64,000 nucleotides of DNA. Source: a virus. A model generated the notes under the pieces. That model worked only from the letters and a program-made list of their open reading frames with translations, did no database searches and had not been told where the DNA came from. A program made the translations under genes and the position numbers. Below, piece after piece: positions 12,475 through 32,736 of this stretch. Positions within the stretch are counted from its first letter, which is position 1; every line of letters starts with the position of its first letter. The DNA lies in the IMG/VR virus record IMGVR_UViG_3300032245_000795, positions 1 through 64,000 of that record, one strand, 5' to 3'.

Positions 12475-14523
12475 ATGGCTGACGAATATATTGATGGTAC
12501 CGAAAATGGTTCTGGGATATTCCCAACTAAAGTTCCTGGCTACGATTTTGCAGCAGATATTCAAGAAGCATTAAAGGTTTATCACTATGGAGCAGTTGAC
12601 CCAGTTACTAAAAAGGCTATAATTCCAACAGACAACAACCTTGGAACACCAAATGGAATAAATACAAAGTCAATTGCAGGACACCTTAAGACATTATCTA
12701 ATACCGATGATACACATGCTGCATTAACACAAAATGTACACGGTATAGCAGACACATCCCTTTTAGCAACAACTTCTTATGTTACAAATGCAATACAAAC
12801 CTCTGCTGGAGGATATCCAGATCTTGCTGGAACAGGACTTGATTGGAACTCCGTTGAACTAAGATTTGATGTAGAGCCACGGATTGCAAACATTAATACC
12901 ATAGTAACAAAGACATCTGGATTTACTTTAGATGCAGATGATGTAAGCAAAACTATTATTCTAAATATGCCTTCTGCAAAAAATTTAACTATCCCGTCAA
13001 ATTCTTCAGTATCAATTCCAGTTGGATCACAATATCATCTGATTGAAATTGGATTAGGAAGAACTACATTTTCTCCAGGTGCTGGAGTTTTAGTAAATAG
13101 CAAAAATGCACAAATGTATATTGACTCACAATTTAGCAAGGCAACACTTTTAAAAATTGATACAAATACTTGGGTTTTGTATGGAGACATTTATGAAGGT
13201 GCTGCAGTAACTCCAGTTACACCAGTTACTCCTGTTACACCAAATCCTGTAGCAGATCTTATTCTTACATATGATTGCAATGGAGGATCAGGATGTCCAA
13301 GCAACACATTCCATAATGGCTCATATACAATACCATCAACAGTTCCAACAAGAAGTGGTTATACATTTAATGACTATGTTGCATCTGGATCAGGATGTTC
13401 CTTTACAGCAACAGTTCCAAATGCTTTACGAGGAGAAACAATATCTTGCTCTGGAGCCATAACATTGACTGCACAATGGACAGCAAATGTAACTCCTGTC
13501 ACACCAGTCGTAACTCCAGTAACTCCAGATCCAGGAGTAACCCCAGTAACTCCCGTAACCCCAGTAACTCCAGTTACTCCAGTAACTCCAGATCCAGGAG
13601 TAACTCCAGTAACACCTGTAACACCTGTAACACCTGTAACCCCCGTAACACCAGTAACTCCCGTAACACCAGTAACTCCAGTAACACCGCAAACAACATA
13701 TTACGGATGCTGTACTAATGGAGCAGGAGTTCAAGGATCATATTCAGATTCTAGTTCAGCAGCAACAGGACTACAAGCAGCATGTGCTGCAAATGAACCA
13801 GGAAACAATTTAACTGGCGGAGTATTTACAACACCACAAAGTTGCACTACTCCTGTTACACCAGTTACTCCAGTCACACCCGTAACCCCAGTAACTCCCG
13901 TAACCCCAGTAACTCCAGTTACTCCAGTAACTCCAGTAACACCAGTAACTCCAGTTACTCCAGTTACTCCAGTTACTCCAGCACTTGATTGTTCTGATGC
14001 AACTTCTCTTAGCCAAGCAAACTGTGCTTCTTGCGGATATACTTGGACTGGTGGGCAGTGTTACGACACCCCTTTTAATGGAGGGGGAGGAGTTACCCCC
14101 GTAACACCAGTAACTCCCGTAACACCAGTAACTCCCGTAACACCAGTAACTCCCGTAACACCAGTAACTCCCGTAACACCAGTAACACCTGTAACGCCAG
14201 TTACACCTGCAGTTACACCACTCGACTGTTCTGATGCAACCTCTCTTAACCAAGCAAATTGTTCCGCATGTGGATATACTTGGTCTGGTGGGCAGTGTTA
14301 CGATACCCCTGCTGCAGTAACACCAGCAGTAACACCAGCAGTAACACCAGCAGTAACACCAGCAGTAACACCAGCAGTAACACCAGCAGTAACACCAGCA
14401 GTAACACCAGCAGTAACACCAGCAGAGGTTACCCCAGCAGTAACACCTGCAGTAACACCACCATATTTCCCATATTTTACGCCACCATACTTCCCATACT
14501 TTACTGTTGAAGGTGCAGTATAA
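12475..14523 (+). CDS. fibre-like protein with (VTP)n/(AVTP)n Pro-Thr repeats, InlB B-repeat and Cys-rich repeats
   Basis: HGIADTS motif, WVLYGD domain, long VTP tracts, two [22 protein letters not shown] repeats, C-terminal PPYFPYF x2. Confidence 0.85.
13489..14460 (+). repeat. coding tandem repeats: 9-nt GTAACWCCA and 12-nt GCAGTAACACCA
   Basis: directly visible; the 12-mer block at about 14314-14424 is near-perfect. Confidence 0.9.
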
Positions 14524-14614
14524 AAATAAATATACAATAAAAACAAGTTAGTCAAAATATGATATACTTAAATAATAAAAATAGTAGATTGTTTTAGTAG
14601 AAAGGTAGTTTCTT

Positions 14615-14851
14615 ATGAGCGAAAAATCTGCTTGGCAAAAATACAAAGAAAACCTTGGAGAAACAAAACCTTGGGACCTTGTTAATCCTAATACTGAATG
14701 GGCTGATGAATCTTTGTCAAAAGAAAGATATAGCATATGTCAATCATGCCCAGAACTAATTAAATTAACAAAACAATGTAAAAAATGTGGATGCTTTATG
14801 GCTGCAAAAACTAAACTTCAATTGGCAACTTGTCCATTAGGGAAATGGTAA
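14615..14851 (+). CDS. small Cys-rich protein, paralog of 8440..8646
   Basis: RYSICQSC...QCKKCGCFMAAKTKL..ATCPLGKW. Confidence 0.8.
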   Translation: MSEKSAWQKYKENLGETKPWDLVNPNTEWADESLSKERYSICQSCPELIKLTKQCKKCGCFMAAKTKLQLATCPLGKW

Positions 14852-15447
14852 TGAAAAAAACAACACTTGCACCAGGAATAGTAGTATATTCTGATGTTCT
14901 TCCAGAATTCAGTACTCTAATAAATGATATAGAAGAAGGAGTAATTAGCGCTGGATTAGAATGGACACCATCACAAATAAGAAAAGATGAGAATTCTGTA
15001 ATAGATACTGATTATAGAGACACAATGATTATAAATGTAAAATATAATGATCAGATTGTTGAAAATTATTCCAATCTTTCAGAAGCATTTTCAACAAGTT
15101 TGTCAAATATATTTGTTTCAGCATTTACTCCAATAGAATTTGACTATAAAACAGAATATCAGTTAAGCACAACTTGGCACGACGGATATAGTATTTTAAA
15201 ATATGGCAAGGGACAAAAGTTTGTAAACCATATTGATGATCATAAAGACTATCATAGAAGATTATCTTGGGTTTATTATATAAATGATAACTATACTGGT
15301 GGTGAAATATCTTTCCCAAGATTTAATATAACCTATAAACCAAAAGCAAATGAACTATTATTATTCCCATCAAACTATGTCTATAATCATTCAGTGCTTC
15401 CAGTAGTTGAAGGAACAAGGTACGCAGTTGTAAGTTGGCTAACGTGA
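14851..15447 (+). CDS. 2OG-Fe(II) oxygenase, prolyl-4-hydroxylase-like
   Basis: HID...YINDNYTGGE..F...HSVLPVVEGTR. Confidence 0.9.
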   Translation: MKKTTLAPGIVVYSDVLPEFSTLINDIEEGVISAGLEWTPSQIRKDENSVIDTDYRDTMIINVKYNDQIVENYSNLSEAFSTSLSNIFVSAFTPIEFDYKTEYQLSTTWHDGYSILKYGKGQKFVNHIDDHKDYHRRLSWVYYINDNYTGGEISFPRFNITYKPKANELLLFPSNYVYNHSVLPVVEGTRYAVVSWLT

Positions 15448-16130
15448 AAGTTGCATGGATAACTCTAACCAGCGGAAGAAAAGATTATTTAGAAAAATCT
15501 AGAGAGTCTTGGTACAGATTTATTGTTGGAGATATTTCAGAGGAAATAATAATAGATACATCTGGAAATAAAGAATATTCTAACTGGTTATCAGAAAAAT
15601 ATAAAAATGCCAAGATTTTTTCTTTAGAAGAAGAGTTTATTTTAGGAAAAACTTGGGATAGCGGAATTAAAAAAGCGTATGAATACTTTTATGACATTGC
15701 AAAAACTATAGACTGTGATTATATATTACATACAGAAGATGACTATGTACTTTTAAATGAGATTAATATTAAAGACATTGTAGATATCATTAACTCAGAC
15801 AACGACATATGTCAAGTTCATTTTATTAGACAACCATGGACAAAAGATGAAGAAGATGCTGGAAGCGTATTGAGAAACTGTGAAAAAAATGGATTTAAAC
15901 TTACAGAAAAAAATAATGAAAAAGATTTCTGGGTAGAGCATAGATCGTACTTTACTTTTGGTCCAAGTATATACAGGAAAAATATTTGTTATATTGAAAA
16001 AGATTTAGATTCTAATCCAGAATTGGCACTAACATATAAAATATTTTCTGATCCAAATATAAAAAATGCAACATTAGGTAAAATAGACGATCCTAATATG
16101 GTAGAGCACATAGGGGTAATTAAAGGATGA
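15444..16130 (+). CDS. GT-A fold (family 2-like) glycosyltransferase
   Basis: TSGRKDYL, IIIDTSG, YILHTEDDY (DxD-type). Confidence 0.75.
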   Translation: MKVAWITLTSGRKDYLEKSRESWYRFIVGDISEEIIIDTSGNKEYSNWLSEKYKNAKIFSLEEEFILGKTWDSGIKKAYEYFYDIAKTIDCDYILHTEDDYVLLNEINIKDIVDIINSDNDICQVHFIRQPWTKDEEDAGSVLRNCEKNGFKLTEKNNEKDFWVEHRSYFTFGPSIYRKNICYIEKDLDSNPELALTYKIFSDPNIKNATLGKIDDPNMVEHIGVIKG

Positions 16131-17743
16131 TAAACAGACTATCCTGTAATTCAATTACTCAAGAATTTTTTTTAGATTATGATTTTGATACTATATGTAT
16201 TAATGATTTTTCTATAAAAAATGATGATGGTCCAGTAACTCATATTCCTGGAGAAACTTACCTTTTCCCCACATACGCTGCATACGGACATTCTTTAGTG
16301 GATATTTATGCACAATTTAAAATTTTGCAATTAAAGTATAAAGACATAAAGCCATTTTTTTATGAGAATGGTTTTCAAGAGCACTATTTTAAAGAAAACA
16401 AAATAACTATAGATCAAATGGATTCTCTTGGATACAAAAATACTAGAATATTTAATCTTGCAATTGGAAATTATTCTTTTGAAAAGGTTGTTTTATTTTT
16501 TGATATGAATAATACAATACCAGAAGAGTTCTATATAGACAATGGAGCGACAAGAAGTTCTCACTATTTTCCATTCTGTGATTGCTATATGGGAACAGAA
16601 CCTTGCGGAGAAAGCAAGTATTTTAAATATAATTATTTAGCAATAGACATTCTTAAAAAAAGTTTTGAGGGTCTATTTAATTCTAATAAAACAGAAAAGT
16701 TTTTTATTTCAAGAGAAAGATATAATAAAAGTTATGAAAAAGAAATAGAATATTATTCTAATAGAGAGTCTTTGTCAGATGAAGAAAAGAGTAGGTTTAT
16801 ATGGGCAAAGGCTAGGTCTACTCCACAAGAGGCCGAAATTCAAAATCTATTTGAAAAAAATGGTTATACAATTATACATGCAGAAGACTACACTTTATTT
16901 GAACAAATAAAAATGTTTAGTTCTGCAAAAGAAATTGCAAGTATTTCTGGAACAGGATTATTTAATACCTTTTGGTGTGATAAAAATACAAAAGTTTTTG
17001 AAATTTTGTCATCTGTGGGATATAAATACCATTATAAAGAATTTGCAGAATATTCTGGGACTGATCATGAGTACATAGATATTCAAAATCTTTCATTAGA
17101 AAATTCTTTAAAAAAAATTGAAAAAGCAATTAATAAAAATAAAGGAGTAAGCATAATGTCAAACTTGCCAATAATAGACATGGACCTTGTACAAAAGGCT
17201 CGTGATGAAAACAGAATTCACATATTTAAAAATGTTTTTACAAACTTACCATCTTTAGATACGATCATGTCAGTAGTATCTAAGTATGTTGATCAAGACT
17301 TGACGGCATTTCCAGATAGATCATATCTTTTAAGTGATTTTGTTGAGGGAGAGTCTTCAGACATGAGATTAAAGTGTAGATTTTGGTCAAGAATGGCTTT
17401 TCAACTTTATGACCCACAAGACCTTTATATGTCAATAATTCCAGAACTAGATCCAGTAACTAGATGGGGTCTTTCTCAATATGCAGAAGAAATCTACACT
17501 GGAAACTTTTGTTTGATATCATTAATGAAAAATAGGGGAGTGGTTGGAAGCAAGCACAGAGACTACGTTGATCAATTTCAGTGGGTAGTTAAGGGTGAAA
17601 TGGTTTGGCGTACTGGAGAAAATTTAGAAAATGAATACCATGTGGTAGAAGGTGACTTTATATTTGTTCCTAAAAATCTTGCTCACGAGGTTGAAACATT
17701 AAAGGCTCCAAGAGCAGCAATTAATCTTATTTTAAGAAACTAA
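16127..17743 (+). CDS. GT61/DUF563-like glycosyltransferase fused to a JmjC/cupin domain
   Basis: YGH, FISR, EQIKMFSSA....SGTGLFN..W; C-terminal HRD...GDFIFVP...HEV. Confidence 0.75.
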   Translation: MINRLSCNSITQEFFLDYDFDTICINDFSIKNDDGPVTHIPGETYLFPTYAAYGHSLVDIYAQFKILQLKYKDIKPFFYENGFQEHYFKENKITIDQMDSLGYKNTRIFNLAIGNYSFEKVVLFFDMNNTIPEEFYIDNGATRSSHYFPFCDCYMGTEPCGESKYFKYNYLAIDILKKSFEGLFNSNKTEKFFISRERYNKSYEKEIEYYSNRESLSDEEKSRFIWAKARSTPQEAEIQNLFEKNGYTIIHAEDYTLFEQIKMFSSAKEIASISGTGLFNTFWCDKNTKVFEILSSVGYKYHYKEFAEYSGTDHEYIDIQNLSLENSLKKIEKAINKNKGVSIMSNLPIIDMDLVQKARDENRIHIFKNVFTNLPSLDTIMSVVSKYVDQDLTAFPDRSYLLSDFVEGESSDMRLKCRFWSRMAFQLYDPQDLYMSIIPELDPVTRWGLSQYAEEIYTGNFCLISLMKNRGVVGSKHRDYVDQFQWVVKGEMVWRTGENLENEYHVVEGDFIFVPKNLAHEVETLKAPRAAINLILRN

Positions 17744-17747
17744 AAAA

Positions 17748-17771
17748 CACCTATAGTTTATACCATAGGTG
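17748..17771. terminator. bidirectional terminator between convergent genes
   Basis: CACCTAT...ATAGGTG hairpin. Confidence 0.65.
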
Positions 17772-17787
17772 CCTTTAGTTGCTGTAT

Positions 17788-18351
17788 TTACTTAGGAAAT
17801 TTATTCATCCATTCCCTGGTTTTAGGCGTAATGCCTTTCCAAGAAGACCAATCATCTCCACCGCTTGTCATATAATATGCAATTTCTGCATTTTTTACGG
17901 GATTGAACAGTTCTGCATTAGAGTTAAGATCAAACTTGGTTCTACGGTCAGGACCAAGATCGTCAATCATATTGATCTGAAACATTCCATAAGATGAGTC
18001 ACCAGTCTTGTGATTACCATTAAAGGCCAGTGGTCGTCCATTAGATTCTTTTTTAGCAACTGCCCAAGCAACTACAAGGTCTCTACCCTTGAATCCTACT
18101 AAAGAAAGCAGTTCTTTTAGTTCTAAATCAGTTAGAAAAACCTTGTTTTCAAAACTCTCTAGTTTTTTTGCCTTAGAAACCAAAAAAACCTCTTTCGAGG
18201 TGGTTTCCGATGTCTGAGCCTGTTCCAGGCTAAGATTGTTCTTTGTATCAAGATCTGAAATAGCATTAGCAGAGTTAGACATAACCGTTACTAGTGCTAC
18301 GATACTGAGTGTGCTAATGATCTCTTTGTTTCTTTCGATAAATTTAATCAT
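17788..18351 (-). CDS. secreted lysozyme-like/lytic transglycosylase
   Basis: signal-peptide-like N-terminus; AKKES, GDSSYGMFQINM, WSSW; AAGGAGG RBS; TTGACC-18-TATACT promoter. Confidence 0.8.
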   Translation of the reverse strand: MIKFIERNKEIISTLSIVALVTVMSNSANAISDLDTKNNLSLEQAQTSETTSKEVFLVSKAKKLESFENKVFLTDLELKELLSLVGFKGRDLVVAWAVAKKESNGRPLAFNGNHKTGDSSYGMFQINMIDDLGPDRRTKFDLNSNAELFNPVKNAEIAYYMTSGGDDWSSWKGITPKTREWMNKFPK

Positions 18352-18453
18352 AGTTTCCTCCTTAGAAAACAATAACACCCTGGTAGGTGTCTACTGACAA
18401 GTATAGCATAATTTTAAGTCAAAGGTCAAATCTGGGTGTATAATAATTTTATT

Positions 18454-18978
18454 ATGACTACATATGATTTTTCTGCCACGGGAGTCAAATATCCCCTTGA
18501 AAACTCTCCTGTAAATGTACATGGAGACTTTAAAAAACTAGCAGAGTCGCTTGATGCAATACTGCCATCATATGGTGTATCATATTTTCAAATTAGTGTT
18601 CATAATAATAGTGGTGGATCAATAAGTGCTGGAGTTCCAGTATACGTAACATCAACTAATTACACAGCAAAGCCTACTATTGCAAAATCTTTGCCATCAA
18701 CTACAGCGCCAGTTCTTGGTTTGCTAAAGTCACCAGTTGAAAATAACTCTGATGGAGTTGTTGTAGTTGCTGGAGTAATGGAAGGGCTTGACACTAATAG
18801 TTTTCTTGCTGGTCAAACACTTTATGTTGGACCTTCGGGTGGTTTAACAAACATAAGACCATCAAACGGTTCAGCAGCAGTTGGAATATGTGCCTATAAA
18901 GATTCTGTAAACGGAATAGTAATAGTAGAGGCAAAAGGAAACGGTACCTGGGGAGCACTCAAAGACGGTTTGTCGTGA
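18454..18978 (+). CDS. virion decoration/cement-like protein
   Basis: AG.PVY, G.V...G, GQTLYV...G.LT pattern; context. Confidence 0.55.
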   Translation: MTTYDFSATGVKYPLENSPVNVHGDFKKLAESLDAILPSYGVSYFQISVHNNSGGSISAGVPVYVTSTNYTAKPTIAKSLPSTTAPVLGLLKSPVENNSDGVVVVAGVMEGLDTNSFLAGQTLYVGPSGGLTNIRPSNGSAAVGICAYKDSVNGIVIVEAKGNGTWGALKDGLS

Positions 18979-18990
18979 TATAATAAAACA

Positions 18991-19401
18991 ATGGCAACTT
19001 TAAGAGGATCTCAAACATCATACGATATAGGAAATAAACCACCTACAGTTATTTGGACTGTTGTTCGTGGAGATACATCTGGTTTTAAGGTTTATGTAAC
19101 AGATGACGCTAAGCAACCTTTGATATTAAAGGGTCCATCATCTGAATGGGATATTGCTATGAAGATTAAAAGACCAAACTCAACTCCTGGAATAATTACA
19201 GATGATGCTGTAACAATTATGGCATTGCATCCAAGAGCAGATGAGGATGATCTGGTTGGAGAATTTACAGTTTGGCTTACAGCGGAAGAATCTAATGTCT
19301 TGCAGACAGGAGACATCTTTGATATTCAGGTTAGCGACCCAACAAGAGTCTGGACAGTTGCTCAGGGTAGCATGAAAATTCTTGAAGATGTAACAGATTA
19401 A
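18991..19401 (+). CDS. BppU-N-like virion protein
   Basis: WTVVRGDT...FDIQV...G.M.ILEDVT. Confidence 0.6.
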   Translation: MATLRGSQTSYDIGNKPPTVIWTVVRGDTSGFKVYVTDDAKQPLILKGPSSEWDIAMKIKRPNSTPGIITDDAVTIMALHPRADEDDLVGEFTVWLTAEESNVLQTGDIFDIQVSDPTRVWTVAQGSMKILEDVTD

Positions 19402-19625: not shown

Positions 19626-19658
19626 TAGTATTATTAAAATGGATGATATAATTACCAC

Positions 19659-20105: not shown

Positions 20106-20122
20106 ATAAAAGGAGATAAAAA

Positions 20123-22117: not shown

Positions 22118-22152
22118 TAAAAAATAAAAATAGTTGGAAGAGGGAGTAGTAA

Positions 22153-22660: not shown

Positions 22661-25129
22661 ATGGCAACAAGAATGCAACAGCGCAGAGGTACTGCAGCAC
22701 AATGGACGGCTGCAAACCCAATTCTAGCAGCAGGTGAAATCGGTTTTGAAACTGATACAAGTAAATTTAAGATGGGTAACGGATCATCAACATGGTCTGC
22801 CCTACAATACTTTGCTAATGCAGCCGAACTAGCAGCAATAGTAGATGGCGCTCCAGGACTCCTTAATACATTGGATGAACTAGCCCAAGCAATCGGAGAC
22901 GATCCAGCCTTCTTTACAACAACAACAAATAATCTTGCAACAAAGGCTCCAATTAACAATCCTACATTTACAGGAACTGTTGGCGGAGTTACAAAGTCAA
23001 TGGTTGGTCTCGGAAATGTTGATAATACATCAGATGCCGCTAAGCCAGTATCAACGGCAGCACAGTCAGCCCTTGATTTAAAGGCTCCTTTGGCTTCAGC
23101 AGCACTTACTGGTACACCAACAGCGCCAACAGCATCAGCAACAACAAATACAACACAAATTGCAACAACAGAATTTGTGCAGACAAAAATAAATAATTTA
23201 ATTGGTGGAGCACCAGAACTATTAGATTCATTAAACGAACTTGCAGCAGCACTAGATAACGATGAAAACTTTGCATCATCAATTGGAACTGCTCTTGGAA
23301 CAAAAGCATCTGTTACACAATTATCTGATCATAATACTTCAACAGAAAATGTTCATGGTATTGCAGATACGTCTGTTCTTGTAACAGACTCAATTCTTTC
23401 AGATGCTTTAACAGATAATATTAGCACTCATAACGGTCTTACCACGAATGTTCATGGTATAGCAGACACGACAGAACTTGCAACAAAAACATACTCAGAC
23501 GATGCAGTTTCTGACCATAACACAGCAACAACAAACATACATGGAATTGCAGATACTTCACTTCTTGTTACTCAATCAGATCTTGAGAATGCAATTGATG
23601 GAGCATCAGTAGATCAATCATCACTTGCAGGAACAGGAATTGACTGGAATACAGTTGATAATAGATTTGACATTGATTCAACAATTGCAACTAAAGCGTA
23701 TGCTGATCAAGCAGAAACAGATGCAATTGCTACAGCAGGCACAGCAGCAGACTCTAAGGTATCGACTGCAATTGCAGCACTTACAAAGTCATCAGTAGGC
23801 CTTGCAAATGTAGATAACACATCAGATACAAGCAAGCCAGTATCAACTGCTACTCAGACAGCACTTGATCTAAAGGCTAATCTTAATGGACCAACATTTA
23901 CTGGTACAGTATCAGGTATTACAAAGTCAATGGTTGGTCTTGGAAGCGTGGATAATACTGCGGATTCAGCAAAGCCAGTCTCAACAGCAACACAGACAGC
24001 ACTTGATGCTAAGTTAGCACTTGCTGGCGGAACAATGACAGGAGCACTTATACTATCAGGTGCACCAACATCAGACCTGCATGCAGCAACTAAAATATAT
24101 GTTGATAACGTAACTGCTGGAATTAACTTCCACGAATCAGTTCACGCAGCCTCAGTATCAAACCTATCAACAATTTATAACAATGGAACATCTGGAGTAG
24201 GCGCAACACTTACAGCAGATACAAACCGTGCATTCTCAACACTTGATGGAGAATCAGTTGTTGTTGGACAAAGAGTACTTATTAAGAACCAGACAGACTC
24301 AAAGCAAAACGGTATTTATACATTGACAACAGTAGGTTCAGGATCTGCTCCATGGGTATTAACTCGTGCAACAGATGCAGATAATAACCCAGTTGGAGAA
24401 ATGAAGACAGGTGACTTCGTATTCGTTATTAACGGTACAGCAAACGCATCTGTTGGATATATCAATAACTCAACTGCAAATCCAATCGTAATTGGAACAG
24501 ACAACATTTCTTACACAGAGTTTAGTGCTGGTAAGACAGTGGTTGCAGGTTCTGGTTTAACAGAAGAAACTCCAGGAACACTATCTATTGCAACTGGAGC
24601 AATTACTTCAGCAATGATCGCTGACGGAGCAATCGTAGATGCAGATGTTAACGCATCAGCAGCAATTGCTCAATCTAAGATTTCAGGTCTTACATCTGAT
24701 CTTGCCGCTAAAGCACCAATTGCTAATCCAACATTTACTGGAACAGTAACTGTTGCAGCATCTGGAGTAGCGTTTACAGACGGTACACAGACAAAGGAAG
24801 GAACTCCTTCACGTACACCTATAATTCAAAAGACAGCAGCATATACACTTTCAGCACTAACAGAAAGAGATTCTCTAATTGAGGTTTCTCATACTGGTGG
24901 TTCAGCAGTTCAAATTACAATTCCAACAGATGCTACTTTGAACTTCCCAATTGGAACATCAATTGATATTCTTCAGACAAACACTGGCGGAGTTACAATT
25001 GCAGCAGCAACACCTGGAACTACAGCAGTAAACTCTACTCCAGGATCAACACTACGTACACAATGGTCATCTGCAACTCTCTTCAAGCGAGCAGCAAATA
25101 CCTGGGTTGTTTACGGAGATCTTAAGTAA
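22661..25129 (+). CDS. tail fibre with Mtd-N-like N-terminal domain
   Basis: RRGTAAQW...GEIGFETDT.KFK.G.G; VGL.NVDNTSD and HGIADT repeats; C-terminal WVVYGDL domain. Confidence 0.85.
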   Translation: MATRMQQRRGTAAQWTAANPILAAGEIGFETDTSKFKMGNGSSTWSALQYFANAAELAAIVDGAPGLLNTLDELAQAIGDDPAFFTTTTNNLATKAPINNPTFTGTVGGVTKSMVGLGNVDNTSDAAKPVSTAAQSALDLKAPLASAALTGTPTAPTASATTNTTQIATTEFVQTKINNLIGGAPELLDSLNELAAALDNDENFASSIGTALGTKASVTQLSDHNTSTENVHGIADTSVLVTDSILSDALTDNISTHNGLTTNVHGIADTTELATKTYSDDAVSDHNTATTNIHGIADTSLLVTQSDLENAIDGASVDQSSLAGTGIDWNTVDNRFDIDSTIATKAYADQAETDAIATAGTAADSKVSTAIAALTKSSVGLANVDNTSDTSKPVSTATQTALDLKANLNGPTFTGTVSGITKSMVGLGSVDNTADSAKPVSTATQTALDAKLALAGGTMTGALILSGAPTSDLHAATKIYVDNVTAGINFHESVHAASVSNLSTIYNNGTSGVGATLTADTNRAFSTLDGESVVVGQRVLIKNQTDSKQNGIYTLTTVGSGSAPWVLTRATDADNNPVGEMKTGDFVFVINGTANASVGYINNSTANPIVIGTDNISYTEFSAGKTVVAGSGLTEETPGTLSIATGAITSAMIADGAIVDADVNASAAIAQSKISGLTSDLAAKAPIANPTFTGTVTVAASGVAFTDGTQTKEGTPSRTPIIQKTAAYTLSALTERDSLIEVSHTGGSAVQITIPTDATLNFPIGTSIDILQTNTGGVTIAAATPGTTAVNSTPGSTLRTQWSSATLFKRAANTWVVYGDLK

Positions 25130-25158
25130 TATTGCAATAAGAAAAGGGGAATTAAAAA

Positions 25159-26088
25159 ATGGCAAATAAAAGAGTAGGTAAAAAGTCTCAAGCAGCAAAT
25201 GACTTCTTGGAACCAAAACCACCAATCAACGTATCTGCTACAGATGTTGGTACAAATAGAGCATTTAATAGTGCAGCAGCATCAGTTACTTTTGAATTGC
25301 CAGCAGGTTCTCCACCAGCAACATCTTACACAGTATCTGCAACATTTGTTGCAACTGGTTCAGGAGGAGACGGTTCAAGCGGAACTACTGTAACACAGTC
25401 GGGAGCATCATCTCCAATTGTAATAGGTGGACTTAAATCTGCAGCATCCTATACATTTGCGGTAACTGCTACAAATGCATCTGGAACATCGGCATCTTCT
25501 TCTTCTACTGGATCAGTTACTGTTACATCAGTACCAAATAAAGTTGGATCAGTAACTGCATCAATAACAGCAGGATCACAAAATGATACAATTACTTGGT
25601 CTGCACCAGCATCTGGTGGAAAAGCAATTAGCCTTTATAGATACATTTCATCTGACTCTAAAACTGGAACATCTGCATCTTTGTCTGCTTCAGTAGCACA
25701 AGAAGCAACAACTTCACAGACATATCAGGTACGAGCAGAAAATGCTAATGGTTTTGGAGATTATTCTAATGCATCTAATAGCGTTACGACTCCACCATTC
25801 TTCCCACCATTCTTTCCGTTCTTCCCTTACTTCCCATTCTTCCCATTCTTCCCACCATTCTTTCCGTTCTTCCCGTTCTTCCCATTCTTCCCACCATTCT
25901 TTCCGTTCTTCCCGTTCTTCCCATTCTTCCCACCATTCTTCCCATTCTTCCCATTCTTCCCATTCTTCCCACCATATTTCCCTTACTTCCCACCAGCACC
26001 AGTAACACCTCCACCATCATTCGGTGGCGGATGTAGATGTTCAGCAACATATTGCTGGCAATGCCCTTGTGGAAATTGCTGCTGTTAA
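25159..26088 (+). CDS. 2x fibronectin-III-like protein with (FFP/PFFP)n repeat and Cys-rich tail
   Basis: GLKSAASYTFAVTATN, YQVRAENANG; Pro/Phe tract; CRCSATYCWQCPCGNCCC. Confidence 0.85.
   Translation: MANKRVGKKSQAANDFLEPKPPINVSATDVGTNRAFNSAAASVTFELPAGSPPATSYTVSATFVATGSGGDGSSGTTVTQSGASSPIVIGGLKSAASYTFAVTATNASGTSASSSSTGSVTVTSVPNKVGSVTASITAGSQNDTITWSAPASGGKAISLYRYISSDSKTGTSASLSASVAQEATTSQTYQVRAENANGFGDYSNASNSVTTPPFFPPFFPFFPYFPFFPFFPPFFPFFPFFPFFPPFFPFFPFFPFFPPFFPFFPFFPFFPPYFPYFPPAPVTPPPSFGGGCRCSATYCWQCPCGNCCC
25792..25993 (+). repeat. coding tandem repeat TTCTTCCCR (Phe-Phe-Pro)
   Basis: directly visible. Confidence 0.9.
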
Positions 26089-26095
26089 TGTTGAA

Positions 26096-26120
26096 GGGTG
26101 CATGCAATCCGTGTGCACCC
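26096..26120 (+). terminator. hairpin after the FFP gene
   Basis: GGGTGCAT...GTGCACCC; no strong U tract. Confidence 0.4.
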
Positions 26121-26161
26121 ATTAACAAATCTATGATATACTAATTACAAAGGAGATCAAA

Positions 26162-26590
26162 ATGTACGCAATTTTAGTTAAAAATAATGAACAGTCTTAT
26201 GACGTGCTTTCATCATTAAGTTATACAGATCAGGAGATCATGAATAATATTGAGAATGCAATAAATAATGAATCTCCTGTGATTGGAATGGCTGCGTCTG
26301 ATCATAAATTTACAGCAACATATGGTGCAGTCTGGAACGGAACATCATTTTCAGGTGGAAAAGCAAGTAAAATGTCTGACGCTACAGAAGAAGAAGTTAA
26401 TTCTTTTGATTTATATGTATTTTTACAAAATAATGTTTTAATTGCTAGATATGGTGTAAGAACTGACTCACCAAAGTCAGAAATGTTCAAGGCAGCATTT
26501 GAAAGCGATGTTATCTTAGTAAAGGTCCCTGAAGATCAAACAGTCTATGCAGGAGAAACCCATAATTGGGATGGATCTAGATTTCTATAA
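26162..26590 (+). CDS. hypothetical protein
   Basis: AAGGAG RBS; 142 aa. Confidence 0.75.
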   Translation: MYAILVKNNEQSYDVLSSLSYTDQEIMNNIENAINNESPVIGMAASDHKFTATYGAVWNGTSFSGGKASKMSDATEEEVNSFDLYVFLQNNVLIARYGVRTDSPKSEMFKAAFESDVILVKVPEDQTVYAGETHNWDGSRFL

Positions 26591-26637
26591 TTATAAATAT
26601 CAAGTTGCAATAAAATAGCGAAAGGCTTATAAGTATA

Positions 26638-27345
26638 ATGTACGATGAAAATAGTAACATATGGTTTACTAAAGATAGGTCAGAAACAGCATCAAATAGA
26701 ATGAACTCTAGACCTGTTAATGAAATAATTACTGTTGAAAATCCAGGTTTAGGATTAAATATTTATAGGAATGTATTTTCTTCTCAAGATGCAGAAAGAT
26801 ATATAAATGTGCTGGAATCAAATTTAACTGGCAATAAGAAATATAAATGGTCAGAAGCACAGGTAACTAATTCCACTGTTCCAATTAAAAAAGCAAGGGA
26901 TGCTGTAGACTTTAAGTACAAGCAAGAAAATCTTGGACCAAGAGATGAAACAAACTCTGAATTAATAGACCTACATGAAGAAATATATCAAAAGTTAAAG
27001 TATTGTGTAGATGATTATGCAAGATACTGGGGAATTAATGTTGTATACTACGAGGCCTTTAATTTTGTAAAGTACGAAGGAGAGGGCACTCACTTTAATA
27101 TTCACGCAGACCATGGCCCAGCATATAACTGCACAGTCTCTGCTGTTATTTATATTAATGACAACTATGAAGGCGGAGAGATTAAATTTCCACGACTAGA
27201 TAACTATATCCATACACCAAAAGTTGGAGACATAGCAATATTTCCATCAAACTATATTTATGAGCATGCATCACTTCCAATGAAGTCAGGCACAAAGTAT
27301 TGTGTTGTTATTATGACTGACATTAATGAGTTAGGCCATAAGTAG
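26638..27345 (+). CDS. 2OG-Fe(II) oxygenase, P4H-like
   Basis: HAD...YEGGE...HASLPMKSGTK. Confidence 0.9.
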   Translation: MYDENSNIWFTKDRSETASNRMNSRPVNEIITVENPGLGLNIYRNVFSSQDAERYINVLESNLTGNKKYKWSEAQVTNSTVPIKKARDAVDFKYKQENLGPRDETNSELIDLHEEIYQKLKYCVDDYARYWGINVVYYEAFNFVKYEGEGTHFNIHADHGPAYNCTVSAVIYINDNYEGGEIKFPRLDNYIHTPKVGDIAIFPSNYIYEHASLPMKSGTKYCVVIMTDINELGHK

Positions 27346-28121
27346 TGAGCGAAAAATCTAAAGTAGCAATCTTTAGATCCTTTAGGCCCTGGTTAAAAAA
27401 AGAAAGTCAAAATGTTCCAACACCAACACAGGGTGTAATTCCAAACTGGTATAAGGATGCTGATAGATTTGCCAAAATGCCAAATGGAGAATACTACAAG
27501 GCTACAAAAGAGGTTTGTCCATTTCCTAAAGAAGGAACTACAGATGACTATGGCAAAATTCCTACATGGAAAGCCTGTCCAGCAATTATGGATGCATTCT
27601 CAACTGGCTATGTATTTAAAACACCATGCGATTTAATATTTGCTAAAAATTCTCAGGGAATAATTAATGTCACAGTTAGTGATAGTAAATATAAAGACTT
27701 TTGCACACAAAGGCCACCAATGCCACAGTTTGAGCATCCCAAAGGATACTATCAACATCATTTTGCTTGGAGTTCAGACTGGGGCCTTGAATTGCCAGAA
27801 GGTTATAGTTCATTGTTTATGACACCAATGAATAGGTTTGATCTTCCATTTTTAAATACAACTGGAGTCGTTGATTCTGACAAAGTACATCTTTTAGGAA
27901 GTTTTCCATTCTTTATAATTGAAGGTTGGGAAGGAACAATTCCAGCAGGAACACCATATCTTCAAGTTATTCCATTTAAGAGAGAAAACTGGGAACACGA
28001 AATACAAATTTTAGATCAGTCTGAAATTTATGATAAAATGGTTAAGAACATGCAGTTTTACCGTCAGCCAGATGGCGGTGTATACAAAAATAAAGTATGG
28101 TCAAGAAGAGAATATAGATAA
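27345..28121 (+). CDS. conserved phage protein (DUF6065-related, possible dUTPase-like fold)
   Basis: KACPA..D....GY; IPAGTPYLQVIPFKRE. Confidence 0.55.
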   Translation: MSEKSKVAIFRSFRPWLKKESQNVPTPTQGVIPNWYKDADRFAKMPNGEYYKATKEVCPFPKEGTTDDYGKIPTWKACPAIMDAFSTGYVFKTPCDLIFAKNSQGIINVTVSDSKYKDFCTQRPPMPQFEHPKGYYQHHFAWSSDWGLELPEGYSSLFMTPMNRFDLPFLNTTGVVDSDKVHLLGSFPFFIIEGWEGTIPAGTPYLQVIPFKRENWEHEIQILDQSEIYDKMVKNMQFYRQPDGGVYKNKVWSRREYR

Positions 28122-28132
28122 GGAATAAAACA

Positions 28133-28816
28133 ATGCAGACATGGACAGAAAAACAAGATCTTGGAAATGGCATATATCTTTATAAGAATGTCATTAAAAA
28201 AGAGTTTGATGTAATAAATAGGCTAGAGTCTTCTTTAGGTTCTGTTGCTGATTATGGTAAGTTATCAGCAGAAGGGAAGATTTATCACTGGATGCCAGCA
28301 TATGTAGGATACCAGCAACTTATGCCAGAGTATAGAGACTGTGTAGATTTTAAATTTAAAAAATCAGACATAGAATTAGATAAAAACGAAGACTCTTTAA
28401 AACTACAAGCGCTTTGGCAAGATATATATGATGCACAATTTGAGGCAGTTGAAGACTACAGAAGAGTCCATAATATTATGCCACTAAAATATTGGGAGGC
28501 ATTTAACTTTATTAAGTATGGTCCAGGACAACACTTTAAAGAGCACCACGATCATGGATATTCATACAACTGTACAGTATCTCTTGTTGCATATGTTAAT
28601 GATGACTACGAAGGCGGAGAACTTTTTTTTAGATTGCAGGGTTTAAATATTAAACCAGAGGCTGGAGATTTGTTTATATTTCCATCTAATTTTATGTATC
28701 CTCATCAAGCAATGCCAGTGCATTCTGGTACAAAATATTCTATTGTTACTATGCTTGATTATAGTAAAAAGTACCACACACCAGACATGTATGATCCAAA
28801 GTGGGATAAAGAATAG
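28133..28816 (+). CDS. 2OG-Fe(II) oxygenase, P4H-like
   Basis: HHD...YEGGE...HQAMPVHSGTK. Confidence 0.9.
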   Translation: MQTWTEKQDLGNGIYLYKNVIKKEFDVINRLESSLGSVADYGKLSAEGKIYHWMPAYVGYQQLMPEYRDCVDFKFKKSDIELDKNEDSLKLQALWQDIYDAQFEAVEDYRRVHNIMPLKYWEAFNFIKYGPGQHFKEHHDHGYSYNCTVSLVAYVNDDYEGGELFFRLQGLNIKPEAGDLFIFPSNFMYPHQAMPVHSGTKYSIVTMLDYSKKYHTPDMYDPKWDKE

Positions 28817-29529
28817 TGATAAATATATCAGTTGAAAAAATGAGGGGTAATCCTTTTATTATTTCACCAATGTCTATTAAAAGAGATTGGATGGATGCAA
28901 CCTCAGAAAAGCATGCATATAGATGTTTTCCAGTTACACAAGCAAATGTTATCGGCTGGAGCCTTTCTTGCATAGAAGACATATCTTTTATTTGGGACGG
29001 AATAAATGATCAAACTCAAGACCATATTAAAATTCTTTTTGCACCAGAAGGATCTTATGCTGGTAGAGGGCAATCATCTATTAGTTTTAATACTGGATTA
29101 ATTTTTAAAACTGAAAATGATTTAAGCATTCTTACAATAAACCCAGTAAATTATTTTAGTGAAGACTTTGAAACAATGTCTAGTCTAATTAGTACATCAT
29201 TTTTTGACAACCCTATTCCATTAGCAATTAAAGCAAAATCAGCAAATAAAGAGATAGTCATAAAGGCTGGAACACCATTAGCAACAATAATTCCTATATC
29301 TTTAACTAATCTAAATAACAGTACAATAGAAATATTAAACTATGAAGATCCAGACAGATCAAGAACTAATGCAAATATTTCTTACGGTGAAGCAGCACAG
29401 GTTATTAATCAATCTGGCAAATGGACTGACTGGTATAGAGATGCCATTAACGAAAAAGGAGAAGTTAAAGGTAAGCATGAGACAAAAACTTTAAAACTTT
29501 ACGTAAACGATAATACGGTTAGCCAATGA
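28816..29529 (+). CDS. DUF6065-like protein
   Basis: RDWMD.T..HAYRCFP...AN..GW; IKAGTPLATIIP. Confidence 0.65.
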   Translation: MINISVEKMRGNPFIISPMSIKRDWMDATSEKHAYRCFPVTQANVIGWSLSCIEDISFIWDGINDQTQDHIKILFAPEGSYAGRGQSSISFNTGLIFKTENDLSILTINPVNYFSEDFETMSSLISTSFFDNPIPLAIKAKSANKEIVIKAGTPLATIIPISLTNLNNSTIEILNYEDPDRSRTNANISYGEAAQVINQSGKWTDWYRDAINEKGEVKGKHETKTLKLYVNDNTVSQ

Positions 29530-29981
29530 GTGAATTAAATCAAATTAACGATATCATATTAAATAACTATATTGAAGACTCTAAAAACGGTAAGGTAAGT
29601 CATTACATGATTGCTGTTGCAAGAGATGGAGAAAGCCCAGTAAGATCAATAATTTCTTTTGATAATATTGAGCAGGCTTTAGAGGGCTACAATATGTATC
29701 AAGATGCTGGTTTTGCAAAAGAATATTTGACTGTATCTTTGTATGAGCCCCTAGGAAAAATTACCACAAAAGTTTTAAAAAGAAATCATGCTGGAGATCC
29801 ATCATTTGTTAGACAAAACTATATAGATACAGTGGAAGCACTGCATCTTGTTAAAGATAAGTTAAATAAAAAAGATTATGAAGACTTATGTATTAAGATT
29901 GTTACATCATTTGCAAAGGATAATTGGAGATTTAATGCAGACAGATTCTTGAAGCAATTAGAGATTGAGAGAGATATTTAG
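29526..29981 (+). CDS. fusion of homologs of early genes 3290..3508 and 4363..4548
   Basis: pairwise motif identity, see findings. Confidence 0.8.
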   Translation: MSELNQINDIILNNYIEDSKNGKVSHYMIAVARDGESPVRSIISFDNIEQALEGYNMYQDAGFAKEYLTVSLYEPLGKITTKVLKRNHAGDPSFVRQNYIDTVEALHLVKDKLNKKDYEDLCIKIVTSFAKDNWRFNADRFLKQLEIERDI

Positions 29982-30009
29982 GATTTAAACCCTATGATAT
30001 AATCAAGTT

Positions 30010-30684
30010 ATGGAAAATAATAATCCTTCTGTTGTAATAAGAAAGCCCTCAATGACACCTTCTGGCTGGTTTGGCGACAGCAAAGATATGATTGTAGAGT
30101 TGGAAAACTTTATGACAGAAGAAGAAATAGTGTTTTTAGAAAATGCTGCAAAGTCGTTGACAATTTGGGATGTAACAGAGACGCATGTAAATGAAAATGG
30201 AACAATCGTGTATGATTCAAATTATTGGAAAGACAGAGTTGCAACAAAGCCAACTTTAGATAAAAATGATTCTGCGATTGCTCCAGTTGTTGCAGGACTA
30301 TTTGAAAGACTAAAGCCAATTGTCGAAGAATTCTATAAGGTAGAGGTTATTCCTACTGGACCAACCATTGTTAAATGGTTACCAGGACAAAGACAAAATC
30401 CTCATGCAGATAAAGAACTTCATGAAGGTCCAGATGCAGGACTTCCAAATGATTTTCCAAACTATGATCTTTCAAGCCTATTTTATTTAAATGACGATTA
30501 TGAAGGTGGAGAACTTTACTTTCCCTTGCAAGGCGTTCAATTTAAGCCTAAAAAGGGTGCAGCATATTTTTTCCCAGGAGATAAAAATTTTATTCACGGA
30601 GTTACAGAGATTAAAAGTGGTCTAAGGTTTACCTGCCCATTCTTTTGGGAAATTATAAAGCATACTGGAGATAGACAGCCATGA
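30010..30684 (+). CDS. 2OG-Fe(II) oxygenase
   Basis: HAD...YLNDDYEGGE...HGVTEIKSGLR. Confidence 0.9.
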   Translation: MENNNPSVVIRKPSMTPSGWFGDSKDMIVELENFMTEEEIVFLENAAKSLTIWDVTETHVNENGTIVYDSNYWKDRVATKPTLDKNDSAIAPVVAGLFERLKPIVEEFYKVEVIPTGPTIVKWLPGQRQNPHADKELHEGPDAGLPNDFPNYDLSSLFYLNDDYEGGELYFPLQGVQFKPKKGAAYFFPGDKNFIHGVTEIKSGLRFTCPFFWEIIKHTGDRQP

Positions 30685-31427
30685 ACCTAAACAATAAAAA
30701 ACGAATTACAAAAGACATTGTTGTTTATGAAAATTTTGTTAGTGCTGAAGAGTGTTCTAAAATGATTAATGCTTTAGATGCACAAGCAGCAAATGGAAAA
30801 ATATCATGGATGCCAATATCTTTTTATGAGTCATATTCATCTGTCTTGCCACAAGACAATGATCAAGAAGTGTTGGATGCTGGCCTTATCCCAACAATTT
30901 TTTCAGACATTGAAAAAATGATGCCAGAGGCTATAGCATCAGTTCACGATCTTGATCCAAAGATTATATCTAAGATTGGATATCACACACAAAAGTGGGA
31001 GCCAGGAGCATATGCAAGAATTCACTCTGACAACACTGATCACGAAGGCAACTCTGGAGCATTTACAAGAAGTAGATATGCTGGATTTTTATATTTAAAT
31101 GATAACTTTGAAGGTGGACTGCTTAGATTCCCAGATCAAAATATTGAGATTCAACCTAAGACAGGTATGCTTGCTGTTTTTGACGGGGGATTTAATAATA
31201 TGCACGAAGTATCCCTAATAGAAAGTGGAGTAAGATATACAATTGGGTCTTTCTGGGATGACAGAGAAGAGTCTGACTATCCACAAGAACTAAGAGATGC
31301 TTGGGCAGAAGAAATGCGAGATACAAGAGCCAAACAGGAAATTGAAAGAGCGCAATGGCAAGAGTTACTTAGAGAAGGATACAAAATAGACATGAATAAT
31401 AATAAATATAAGGTTGGAGATAATTAA
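30681..31427 (+). CDS. 2OG-Fe(II) oxygenase
   Basis: HSD...YLNDNFEGG...HEVSLIESGVR. Confidence 0.9.
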   Translation: MNLNNKKRITKDIVVYENFVSAEECSKMINALDAQAANGKISWMPISFYESYSSVLPQDNDQEVLDAGLIPTIFSDIEKMMPEAIASVHDLDPKIISKIGYHTQKWEPGAYARIHSDNTDHEGNSGAFTRSRYAGFLYLNDNFEGGLLRFPDQNIEIQPKTGMLAVFDGGFNNMHEVSLIESGVRYTIGSFWDDREESDYPQELRDAWAEEMRDTRAKQEIERAQWQELLREGYKIDMNNNKYKVGDN

Positions 31428-31428
31428 C

Positions 31429-32094
31429 ATGGGAATTTTTCTAGAAAAAGAGTTTACAGATGCTAACTATGAAATAGAGGTTTTGCATGGAGGTATATTG
31501 GCTATTAAAAACTTTATATCGGATGAAGAATTAGAAACAATTTGGAAAATAATTAATAATGCTACAGAAGCAGATTGGGGTATAGAGTATACAAAAAATC
31601 TTGCCAGATTCTGTATGGAAAAGTTTGGAAGAGACGATGTTGAAAACTTAGTTGCTGAAGGCAAATTTGAGATTACTCTTGGCTGGGAAGATAAAAACCT
31701 AAACATTGTTCACGAACCAATCACTGTTACTTTACAGAGAAGACTTGGAGATTTGATTCAATTGTCTGATCCATCTTTAGAACTTGCTGGTTTTGGAACA
31801 CTACAAAGAATGCAGCACGGAGTTGAGTTGAAGTCTCATACAGATCAGCACACAGATCCATCTATTAGATATGCTGCTATACTATACATCAATGACGACT
31901 ATAAAGAAGGAACTTTGTTCTTTGAAAATAAGCCAGGGTCTGATTTAAGACCAAACCCAAAGACATTGCTTATTTTCCCAGGGACTGAAGAATACGAACA
32001 CGGAGTAAGACCTGTAGGCAAAGACAGCCCAATTAGATATGTAACTGTTGGGTTTATTAAGGTTAGAGGTTGGTATGAAAATAATAAATATTAA
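31429..32094 (+). CDS. 2OG-Fe(II) oxygenase
   Basis: HTD...YINDDYKEG...HGVRPV....IR. Confidence 0.88.
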   Translation: MGIFLEKEFTDANYEIEVLHGGILAIKNFISDEELETIWKIINNATEADWGIEYTKNLARFCMEKFGRDDVENLVAEGKFEITLGWEDKNLNIVHEPITVTLQRRLGDLIQLSDPSLELAGFGTLQRMQHGVELKSHTDQHTDPSIRYAAILYINDDYKEGTLFFENKPGSDLRPNPKTLLIFPGTEEYEHGVRPVGKDSPIRYVTVGFIKVRGWYENNKY

Positions 32095-32106
32095 AGGAGA
32101 TACACT

Positions 32107-32736
32107 ATGAACAGAGAGATACTTGAAGAAAAGGTTTATTACTACACAGATGTAATTGAAGACCCAAAGAAACTTGTTGACGCAATTGAAAACGATAACA
32201 AAGATCCTTGGGGAGAGTGGATGGCTTGCAGCGGACAAGCCTATGTTTATGGAACCGATAAGACTATTGCTTTAACAGCAAATGCTGATGAAAAAGATAA
32301 ATATATTTACAACACTTTACAAAAGGCTTTTGATGATGTAGCAAGAGATTATGCAAATGCTCAGGGAATCACTGATGAACCAAAATTGTTTCCACAGTAT
32401 CCTATTAAGAAATACCAGCCAGGAACATATATGGGTGCACACTTTGATCAGCAAGAAGGCGATGAAAGACTAAAGGTTTCTTTTGTAATGTATCTTAATG
32501 ATGACTATGAAGGAGGAGAAATATCTTTTACTATTGCATCTCCAAATGGTGTTTTGCAAAATTCTAGTCCAGATCCAGATTTTGCAAAAGCAGAACAATA
32601 TAAAAATTATACTTTTGCTGTAAAACCAAAAGCAGGCAGTATTATTGTGTTTCCTCCATCACCACCATATCATCACACCGCTCATTTAGTTAAAAGTGGT
32701 GAAAAGATTATGGTTCCACAACACTGGATACACTAA
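32107..32736 (+). CDS. 2OG-Fe(II) oxygenase
   Basis: HFD...YLNDDYEGGE...HTAHLVKSGEK. Confidence 0.9.
   Translation: MNREILEEKVYYYTDVIEDPKKLVDAIENDNKDPWGEWMACSGQAYVYGTDKTIALTANADEKDKYIYNTLQKAFDDVARDYANAQGITDEPKLFPQYPIKKYQPGTYMGAHFDQQEGDERLKVSFVMYLNDDYEGGEISFTIASPNGVLQNSSPDPDFAKAEQYKNYTFAVKPKAGSIIVFPPSPPYHHTAHLVKSGEKIMVPQHWIH

Follow-up and report, generated by a model that had tools for sequence, protein, structure and literature searches.

Proline-repeat proteins of the window

The DNA analysed here (the window) is a stretch of 64,000 nucleotides, the first 64 kb of IMG/VR virus record IMGVR_UViG_3300032245_000795. The record is a single virus genome of 115,083 bp (100% complete, CheckV) with the gene content of a siphovirus, and represents an uncultured phage from a lake; the contigs of this group come from samples of the Lake Mendota type. 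Positions 12475-32736 lie in the fibre part of this genome and hold two gene modules, here called A and B. Each consists of a protein with tandem proline repeats followed by one or more genes of the prolyl 4-hydroxylase (P4H)-like 2-oxoglutarate/Fe(II) (2OG-Fe(II)) oxygenase type. The repeat proteins, each regarded as a candidate substrate, and the tail fibre related to them are:

12475-14523, plus strand: module A repeat protein (682 aa), a fibre domain followed by a (VTP)n/(AVTP)n stalk, two Cys inserts and an end with two copies of PPYFPYF.
25159-26088, plus strand: module B repeat protein (309 aa), an FN3 domain (PF00041) followed by (FFP)n, PPYFPYF, PVTP and a Cys-rich tail.
22661-25129, plus strand: tail fibre with an Mtd_N start and the C-terminal end NTWVVYGDLK.

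Proline tandem repeats were found in just these two repeat proteins among the ∼150 open reading frames (ORFs) of the genome. The pattern P[FY][FY]P occurred 22 times in the two proteins, against 0.4 expected genome-wide. In 25159-26088 about 80 residues of FFP/PFFP separate the FN3 domain from PPYFPYF, with Pro at approximately every third residue. In 12475-14523 the fibre domain terminates in NTWVLYGD and is followed by the (VTP)n and (AVTP)n blocks, in which Tandem Repeats Finder (TRF) arrays had periods of 9, 12 and 18. Residues 135-239 matched minor-tail and structural PHROG families. Two parts of this protein are homologous to the tail fibre 22661-25129, residues 54-185 to its residues 252-396 (E 3e-10) and residues 143-239 to its residues 721-821 (E 1.5e-5). 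A preliminary description of this DNA had listed the module layout, both repeat ORFs, the shared PPYFPYF and PVTP motifs and a common fibre domain ending in TW.(L/V)YGD. All of these features were recovered, the last as NTWVLYGD inside the module A protein and NTWVVYGDLK at the end of the tail fibre.

Oxygenases

Eight genes scored above the PF13640 cut-off (35.8-66.3 bits, cut-off 27), seven of them within the two modules. In the list below the position of the basic residue, which in this family binds 2OG, is counted from the distal His of the iron-binding HxD...H triad.

14830-15447, plus strand: OXY_A, P4H/PHD-type 2OG-Fe(II) oxygenase of module A (PF13640 64 bits), H134-x-D136...H187, Arg at +10.
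26638-27345, plus strand: OXY1, PF13640 oxygenase, Lys at +10.
28133-28816, plus strand: OXY2, PF13640 oxygenase, Lys at +10.
30010-30684, plus strand: OXY3, PF13640 oxygenase, Arg at +10.
30681-31427, plus strand: OXY4, PF13640 oxygenase, Arg at +10.
31414-32094, plus strand: OXY5, PF13640 oxygenase, Arg at +12.
32107-32736, plus strand: OXY6, PF13640 oxygenase, Lys at +10.
105008-105691, minus strand: eighth PF13640 oxygenase, outside the window and far from both modules.

H134, D136 and H187 were invariant across the seven window paralogues, and each carries a basic residue 10 (once 12) residues past the distal His. The count of one P4H-like oxygenase in module A and six in module B given in the preliminary description therefore stands, as does the distal Lys that it noted in the genes at 26638, 28133 and 32107; the remaining four have Arg. 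Mutual identity of the seven paralogues was 22-42%, so OXY3 to OXY6 are old paralogues. A sequence search of the PDB returned B. anthracis P4H, PHD2, LH3 and P3H1 as the closest solved structures at weak E values (1e-3 to 5e-6), and the top matches of OXY_A were B. anthracis P4H and PHD2. These resemblances support placement in the protein-hydroxylase clade, from which peptidyl-Pro or peptidyl-Lys activity is predicted. An identity as TET/JBP or AlkB enzymes was rejected; Tet_JBP was matched by OXY3 alone, at 20.9 bits against a cut-off of 34.9.

The module B array and its DUF6065 proteins

Between the (FFP)n protein and a conserved ribonucleotide reductase (RNR) gene, the six module B oxygenases are interleaved with four further genes.

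26162-26590, plus strand: small conserved gene between the repeat protein and the array, with 34 homologues in related loci.
27345-28121, plus strand: DUF6065-like protein, weakly similar to 28816-29529 (pairwise E 0.002); the family was bridged by phmmer.
28816-29529, plus strand: DUF6065 protein with a predicted dUTPase fold (PF19541 91 bits).
29526-29981, plus strand: 151-aa protein of no named family, optional in arrays and a paralogue of 3290-3508 (minus strand).
32831-34864, plus strand: class II RNR, the conserved right border of module B and a locus anchor.

The gene 26162-26590 had an Atlas score of 0.81 to Caudo_TAP_N clusters, a weak lead to tail-fibre assembly. DUF6065 proteins were core members of every array seen. 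The two DUF6065-like genes of the preliminary description are thus one clear member, 28816-29529, and one, 27345-28121, that is only weakly DUF6065-like. The AF2 model of 28816-29529 (pLDDT 75) was matched to dUTPases by Foldseek (E 5e-5, TM by target 0.5-0.7). Against 15 dUTPases VIA gave Z values of 11.3-8.1, with the next unrelated fold at Z ∼4. Two independent aligners therefore agree on a dUTPase-like beta-barrel fold for the model. PF00692 (dUTPase) had no match over the whole genome, and the phage has no canonical dUTPase. The residues invariant in 17 DUF6065 homologues (R23, W25, Y35, C37, P39, N44, G47, W60, G62 and others) differ from what we take to be the dUTPase motifs. A true dUTPase was therefore rejected, the fold being present and the sequence family and motifs absent.

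This fold, an array that abuts class II RNR, the weak Tet_JBP match of OXY3 and an older proposal of DNA repair (PMC3037559) together suggest a role directed at nucleotides or DNA, in which the oxygenases, dUTPase-fold proteins and RNR would form a modification or repair set in the style of AlkB or TET/JBP. We regard such a role as very improbable. All eight oxygenase genes score best to PF13640, DUF6065 lacks the conserved dUTPase motifs, and where the array is relocated in relatives it accompanies the repeat gene and not RNR.

Pairing of the (FFP)n repeat with the array

Related loci (numbered with L) were anchored on RNR. Of at least 600 stretches that matched, 80 loci were obtained (RNR identity 88-99%); these were pooled with other anchored loci and de-duplicated. 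Within the window's lineage, every FN3 protein with an (FFP)n tail (27/27) had two to eight oxygenases downstream. FN3 proteins with other tails, among them (FGVFGFSPTPP)n, (YSFTPV)n and (FGA)n, had none between the FN3 gene and RNR (0/26). A two-round search of ∼2,400 locus proteins with hidden Markov models (HMMs) for cryptic oxygenases in the array-less relatives added one gene, so the contrast is real. The counts (27/0 versus 0/26) were not treated as a probability, and a sign test has no power here because the trait changed only one to three times.

An unbiased pattern scan of IMG/VR for DNA encoding FFPFFPFFPPFFP yielded 79 new loci. For (FFP)n ORFs with at least 3 kb of downstream sequence (n = 56), the first oxygenase lay one to four genes away in 53 and at least two oxygenases lay within five genes in 49. 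In two of the three exceptions the contig has another (FFP)n gene, and the array lies next to that one. Conversely, 38 of the 41 arrays anchored on the DUF6065 profile had an (FFP)n ORF no more than five genes upstream.

The proteins that carry the repeat were diverse. Some have two FN3 domains, and others have a PASTA-like N-terminus (L211, L212). A protein with one FN3 domain stands at the module A position before the lysozyme-like SLT gene, and the entire array is relocated there (L226, L232, L242). In L281 (portal 48% identical) the protein consists of 37 residues followed by 52 FFP units. The (FFP)n gene stands immediately after the collagen gene in L219, L221, L259, L274 and L279. Relocated arrays accompanied the repeat gene and not RNR, being found before SLT, beside the portal gene or after the collagen gene. 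The 76.7 kb contig G001 (portal 50% identical) has its array at 38-45 kb on the minus strand and the (FFP)n gene at ∼59 kb on the plus strand, ∼14 kb apart, with additional FFP-like DNA at 51.6 and 6.8 kb. Here repeat and array co-occur without adjacency.

The (FFP)n DNA pattern was present on just six contigs from 185,579 prokaryote species genomes, all of them contigs of metagenome-assembled genomes (MAGs). Of five that could be checked, four (L410-L413) carry phage module genes of the window and L414 carries oxygenase homologues only; L415 was too short to check. The bins are named Luteolibacter, Bacteroidetes, Lishizhenia, Beijerinckiaceae and Acidimicrobiaceae. These contigs are probably mis-binned, so the labels are uninformative on the host. 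Across IMG/VR, (FFP)n and the oxygenase array form a pair that is specific to phages and nearly obligate.

The main alternative to a functional relation is a co-inherited cassette in which the array acts on some other product (a peptide-like secondary metabolite, a host protein or an envelope component) and (FFP)n is a travelling neighbour. On the FN3-domain tree just one to three independent changes within the window's lineage account for the repeat/array trait; inside that lineage the table could reflect one inherited and recombined cassette, and adjacent genes are co-inherited anyway. The oxygenase cluster of Synechococcus phage Syn9 is homologous in kind and includes a DUF6065 homologue (gp43), with no Pro repeat nearby. 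Such clusters have been interpreted as metabolite pathways by Iyer et al. (PMC2938197), and no hydroxyproline (Hyp) was detected in virions of the chlorovirus PBCV-1 (PMC7019647). Against the cassette, the repeat stays with the array on at least five carrier proteins and at several genomic positions, including the non-adjacent arrangement of G001. The short [FY][FY]P ends of module A proteins described below occur in none of the relatives judged array-less, and the window's array contains no nonribosomal peptide synthetase (NRPS), halogenase or transporter genes. A cassette of this kind is judged unlikely, and it is considered highly probable that (FFP)n and the array are functionally linked.

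Junctions and appendages of the repeat proteins

In many relatives (L038:905-1387, L152, L039, L022, L116:9490-9987 and others) the repeat tract is followed by a Hint (bacterial intein-like, BIL) domain that starts with Cys and often ends in HN. One junction reads ...PYFPPYFPYFNSA followed directly by CIDQDT... A PDB profile search with this domain matched the BIL domain 2lwy (E 2e-5) and several inteins, which suggests self-cleavage or ligation at the repeat end. The two repeat proteins of the window differ in having a Cys-rich tail or a short end in its place. Cys-rich tails (C.C...YCW..CP.CC) recur on VTP-type and FFP-type proteins alike. PASTA domains (PF03793) start some repeat carriers, and CBM_5_12 is present on a collagen-like relative (L116, L103, L211, L212). 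Such appendages may bind cell-wall glycans of a Gram-positive host.

The module A island

Four genes in addition to OXY_A were considered for module A, the last of them its border.

14615-14851, plus strand: DUF6171 small Cys-rich protein, CxxC...CxxCxC...C (PF19668 29.5 bits); its 3' end overlaps the OXY_A start.
15435-16130, plus strand: putative glycosyltransferase (GT) with a GT2-like lead; no Pfam match even at E 5.
16127-17743, plus strand: GT61 (PF04577 53.1 bits, cut-off 27, aa 201-290) fused to a cupin-like HxD...H domain (aa 345-538).
17788-18378, minus strand: lysozyme-like SLT gene (PF18896 58 bits), the conserved right border of the island and a locus anchor.

In relatives, 17 island architectures and many module B arrays have a DUF6171 gene ahead of the first oxygenase. 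The protein 15435-16130 was called GT-A in the preliminary description. That label was dropped, as the protein has no Pfam match and just an Atlas lead (feature score 0.98) to viral clusters in which 20-25% of members contain PF00535 (GT2). Its homologues are rare (4 in ∼280 loci). The fusion of GT61 to a JmjC domain had also been proposed for 16127-17743. The GT61 part is well matched and has in addition a weak PDB match to POMGNT2 (E 0.03). The C-terminal domain scored 25 bits to Cupin_2, below the cut-off of 27.2, with PDB cupins at just E 0.6, and its AF2 model (pLDDT 56) was not used, so that the JmjC assignment is reduced to the invariant HxD...H. In many relatives the cupin-like domain is a separate gene of ∼194 aa, with H133, D135 and H176 invariant in 12 homologues. 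A family of 193-aa proteins, frequently encoded after OXY_A in relatives, had no Pfam match, and its identity with the cupin domain was rejected (hhalign probability 0.1).

The Cys inserts of 12475-14523 (window 13800-14300, aa ∼455-600) contain C-G-Y-T-W-(T/S)-G-G-Q-C. Speculatively, this resembles what we take to be the acceptor pattern of the GT61 enzyme EOGT, C-x-x-G-x-(S/T)-G-x-x-C.

Closely related loci were anchored on SLT (91-95% identical, L120-L199). The stretch from stalk to SLT was hypervariable, with 42 gene architectures, which marks it as a site of intense turnover of glyco-genes. Among its genes are NAD-dependent epimerase/dehydratase, PF11397 GlcNAc-transferase (which we equate with the Gnt1/GT60 family), GT61, FkbM methyltransferase and radical-SAM/SPASM enzymes; a sulfotransferase-like family is present in related loci. 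When the GT60-like protein of relatives was compared with PDB sequences, no match was obtained. In some islands (L140, L151, L154, L159) the radical-SAM/SPASM gene adjoins the Cys-rich DUF6171 gene; SPASM enzymes often modify Cys-containing peptides.

The DUF6171-oxygenase pair was present in 32 of 53 loci. TP repeats were kept in 17 of the 21 loci lacking it, though several of these genomes carry the array elsewhere. The median number of TP repeat residues was 57 without an island oxygenase and 105 with one. The linkage of repeats and enzymes across related phages expected from the preliminary description therefore holds for (FFP)n and the array (53/56, 38/41) and is looser for the TP repeats, which mostly persist without an island oxygenase. 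GT61/cupin genes were restricted to islands with an oxygenase (7 versus 0 architectures). GT60-type genes (8 versus 5 architectures) and epimerases (11 versus 7) occurred with or without one, which makes Thr no less probable than Hyp as the sugar acceptor. Pro repeats are nearly absent from the three relatives in which no oxygenase was in view (L138, L140, L146). L140 and L159 (the latter with no island oxygenase and its array region out of view) have a Thr/Ala-rich linker and retain the GT60-epimerase genes.

On other backbones, distant OXY_A homologues (33-52% identical) follow Pro-repeat proteins in L102, L104/105, L109-111, L116 and L118/119. The repeats there include (PPVT)n at 37% Pro, (TVTPTAP)n and (TPTPV)n. 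Three lineages of such homologues have no preceding Pro-repeat protein (L108, L115, L117).

The motif PPYFPYF had been suggested to act as a recognition tag. Ends of this type in module A proteins showed no positive association with an island oxygenase, and short [FY][FY]P stretches ending these proteins, PPYFPYF included, were absent from the relatives judged array-less. A tag is therefore the less likely reading; judged by their sequence, these ends look more like extra substrate sites, short copies of the (FFP)n motif.

The island might instead glycosylate some other target, either host surface polymers (superinfection exclusion, seroconversion) or the phage DNA. Such targets are common for phage GTs, and the island has sugar-nucleotide enzymes and varies as greatly as loci that modify O-antigen. 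It is, on the other hand, always placed directly after a Thr/Pro-rich (or Thr/Ala-rich) stalk protein within the fibre module. GT61 and GT60 include protein O-glycosylating members, and the weak match to POMGNT2 points the same way. Another target is accordingly rated as distinctly unlikely, and glycosylation of the (VTP)n stalk itself as moderately probable. The hypervariable sugar island beside the stalk suggests selection on the virion surface. The extensin-type Hyp-O-glycosylation put forward at the outset found no counterpart among the enzymes, as none of the known Hyp-specific GTs (GT95 HPAT, GT96, GT60 Gnt1) occurs in the window, which has GT61 and an unclassified GT only. Hyp-linked glycans specifically are possible, are not indicated by these genes and are considered unlikely.

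Proposed functions of the two modules

On balance we favour, from comparison of sequences and gene neighbourhoods, a reading in which the window holds two enzyme-plus-substrate modules and the oxygenases tailor the phage's own repeats by hydroxylation. In module B the P4H/PHD-type oxygenases would hydroxylate the (FFP)n tract of the FN3 protein post-translationally. Pro is the usual target of this family and would be the residue modified; oxidation of the Phe side chain is also possible. The battery would comprise a conserved part (OXY1, the DUF6065-like protein, OXY2, DUF6065 and OXY3) and variable further oxygenases, with different paralogues serving different sequence contexts or ring positions. 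The two dUTPase-fold proteins may be non-catalytic partners. In module A a fast-evolving glycosylation island (DUF6171, one oxygenase, the GT2-like gene and GT61-cupin) would O-glycosylate the mucin-like (VTP)n stalk. Thr would be the constant sugar acceptor and Hyp perhaps a second, with Pro hydroxylation as an optional addition.

Virion tailoring was favoured over a metabolic role for the oxygenases, as the preliminary description had also proposed, because they belong with the protein hydroxylases, because (FFP)n is almost always paired with the array and because a sugar island follows the stalk in all relatives. Several points weigh against this reading. The trait changed few times within the lineage, and the array is absent beside FN3 proteins with other Pro-containing repeats, e.g., (FGVFGFSPTPP)n and (YSFTPV)n. 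TP repeats persist in loci that lack the island oxygenase. Both repeat proteins are placed on the virion by assumption, on the basis of their domains and the position of their genes. A nucleotide-related reading is permitted by the adjacent RNR and by the dUTPase fold of DUF6065. In cyanomyovirus S-SSM7 the oxygenases are part of a heptose/sugar island and have no Pro-repeat gene beside them, so the explanation is not to be extended to all phage 2OG genes; the Syn9 and PBCV-1 precedents given above count on the same side.

Among the "auxiliary metabolic genes" (AMGs) reported from aquatic viromes, those for P4H-like and other 2OG-Fe(II) oxygenases rank with the commonest, and the role of phage P4H/2OG genes has been called cryptic or undetermined (PMC9301287; PMC11561400; PMC3037559). 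A simple, encoded and phage-specific candidate substrate makes this question, more than 10 years old, directly testable. We tentatively propose that these AMGs, at least in this large freshwater group, form a multi-enzyme pathway to a heavily hydroxylated (Phe-Phe-Pro)n polymer on a virion appendage, with dUTPase-fold partners and, in relatives, intein-like C-terminal processing. If true, the polymer would represent a novel viral surface material built by post-translational modification, this gene class would receive its first assigned substrate, and part of the metagenomic "viral metabolic potential" would be virion tailoring.

Genomic setting

The structural genes include a portal gene at 39023, a protease at 40669, a capsid gene at 42022 and a 4089-aa tape measure at 48138. 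The portal has ∼47% identity to Streptomyces phage portals, and the class II RNR has 61% identity to an Actinomycetia phage counterpart. Searches against 50,697 isolated phages gave no DNA-level match to the whole region (megablast) and no match to DUF6065 or the cupin domain (tblastn). The oxygenases alone gave matches among these phages, all in cyanophages. One further fibre gene lies near module A:

10470-11201, plus strand: collagen-like fibre protein (PF01391 32 bits, tail-fibre PHROGs).

This is the collagen-like protein of the preliminary description. It was rejected as an obligate oxygenase substrate, as it is kept in the oxygenase-free relatives L138, L140 and L146. In the minus-strand early region, ∼3 kb (3916-7075) contain no ORF of at least 70 aa. 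A promoter/terminator scan gave a result no better than shuffled sequence.

Comparison with known systems

The closest known gene neighbourhood is the tandem dioxygenase cluster gp41-gp54 of Syn9, interpreted as a secondary-metabolite pathway (Iyer, Abhiman, de Souza, Aravind 2010; PMC2938197). Both have several tandem, mutually distant 2OG-Fe(II) dioxygenases and a dUTPase-fold protein with a conserved Cys (C37, invariant in DUF6065), and Syn9 gp43 matched the DUF6065 HMM at E 5e-7. As with the array described here, fibre genes adjoin the Syn9 cluster, which comes immediately after those for the tail fibre and its assembly (gp32-gp39). It differs in having two tryptophan halogenases and a JmjC (MINA-type) member, neither a tryptophan halogenase nor a MINA/No66 JmjC having a Pfam match in 26162-32736. 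It also has no Pro-repeat protein near it, whereas here an all-PF13640 array is coupled to (FFP)n. Between the Syn9 fibre genes and the cluster lies gp36 (L416 8856-9806), a low-complexity protein that is rich in Gly, contains Cys and is possibly the cyanomyovirus counterpart of the repeat protein. The array itself is thus a known kind of gene neighbourhood; the new element is the encoded (FFP)n protein with which it is coupled.

PBCV-1 has the one characterised viral P4H. As cited in later papers, this enzyme acts in vitro on peptides that contain Pro, hydroxylating them with sequence specificity (Eriksson et al. 1999, in PMC7019647 and PMC9301287); in the virion proteins Hyp was not detected and the role of the enzyme is given as unknown (PMC7019647). 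The resemblance lies in a viral P4H-type enzyme together with genome-encoded Pro-rich repeat proteins. PBCV-1 differs in having one enzyme against eight here, in being a eukaryotic virus and in having no reported gene adjacency.

For virion glycosylation the nearest case is that of mycobacteriophages, in which an actinobacteriophage-type siphovirus is said to use its own GTs, encoded among the structural genes (the work of Freeman et al. 2023, Cell Host Microbe). We know of no oxygenases or Pro-repeat stalks that take part there.

The Skp1 PhyA/Gnt1 pathway (P4H, then GT60 GlcNAc-transferase) and the plant and algal pathways for hydroxyproline-rich glycoproteins (HRGPs) share one logic, in which a P4H acts first and the hydroxylated residue is then O-glycosylated. 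The window differs from both in having GT61 and an unclassified GT in place of GT60, GT95 or GT96, and in having VTP and FFP repeats rather than SPPPP. Its relatives come closer to the Skp1 pathway, with a PF11397 GT beside a P4H-like gene, but their GT60 occurs with and without an oxygenase. If the favoured reading is true, phages would join plants, animals and giant viruses as builders of hydroxylated and glycosylated Pro-rich surface polymers.

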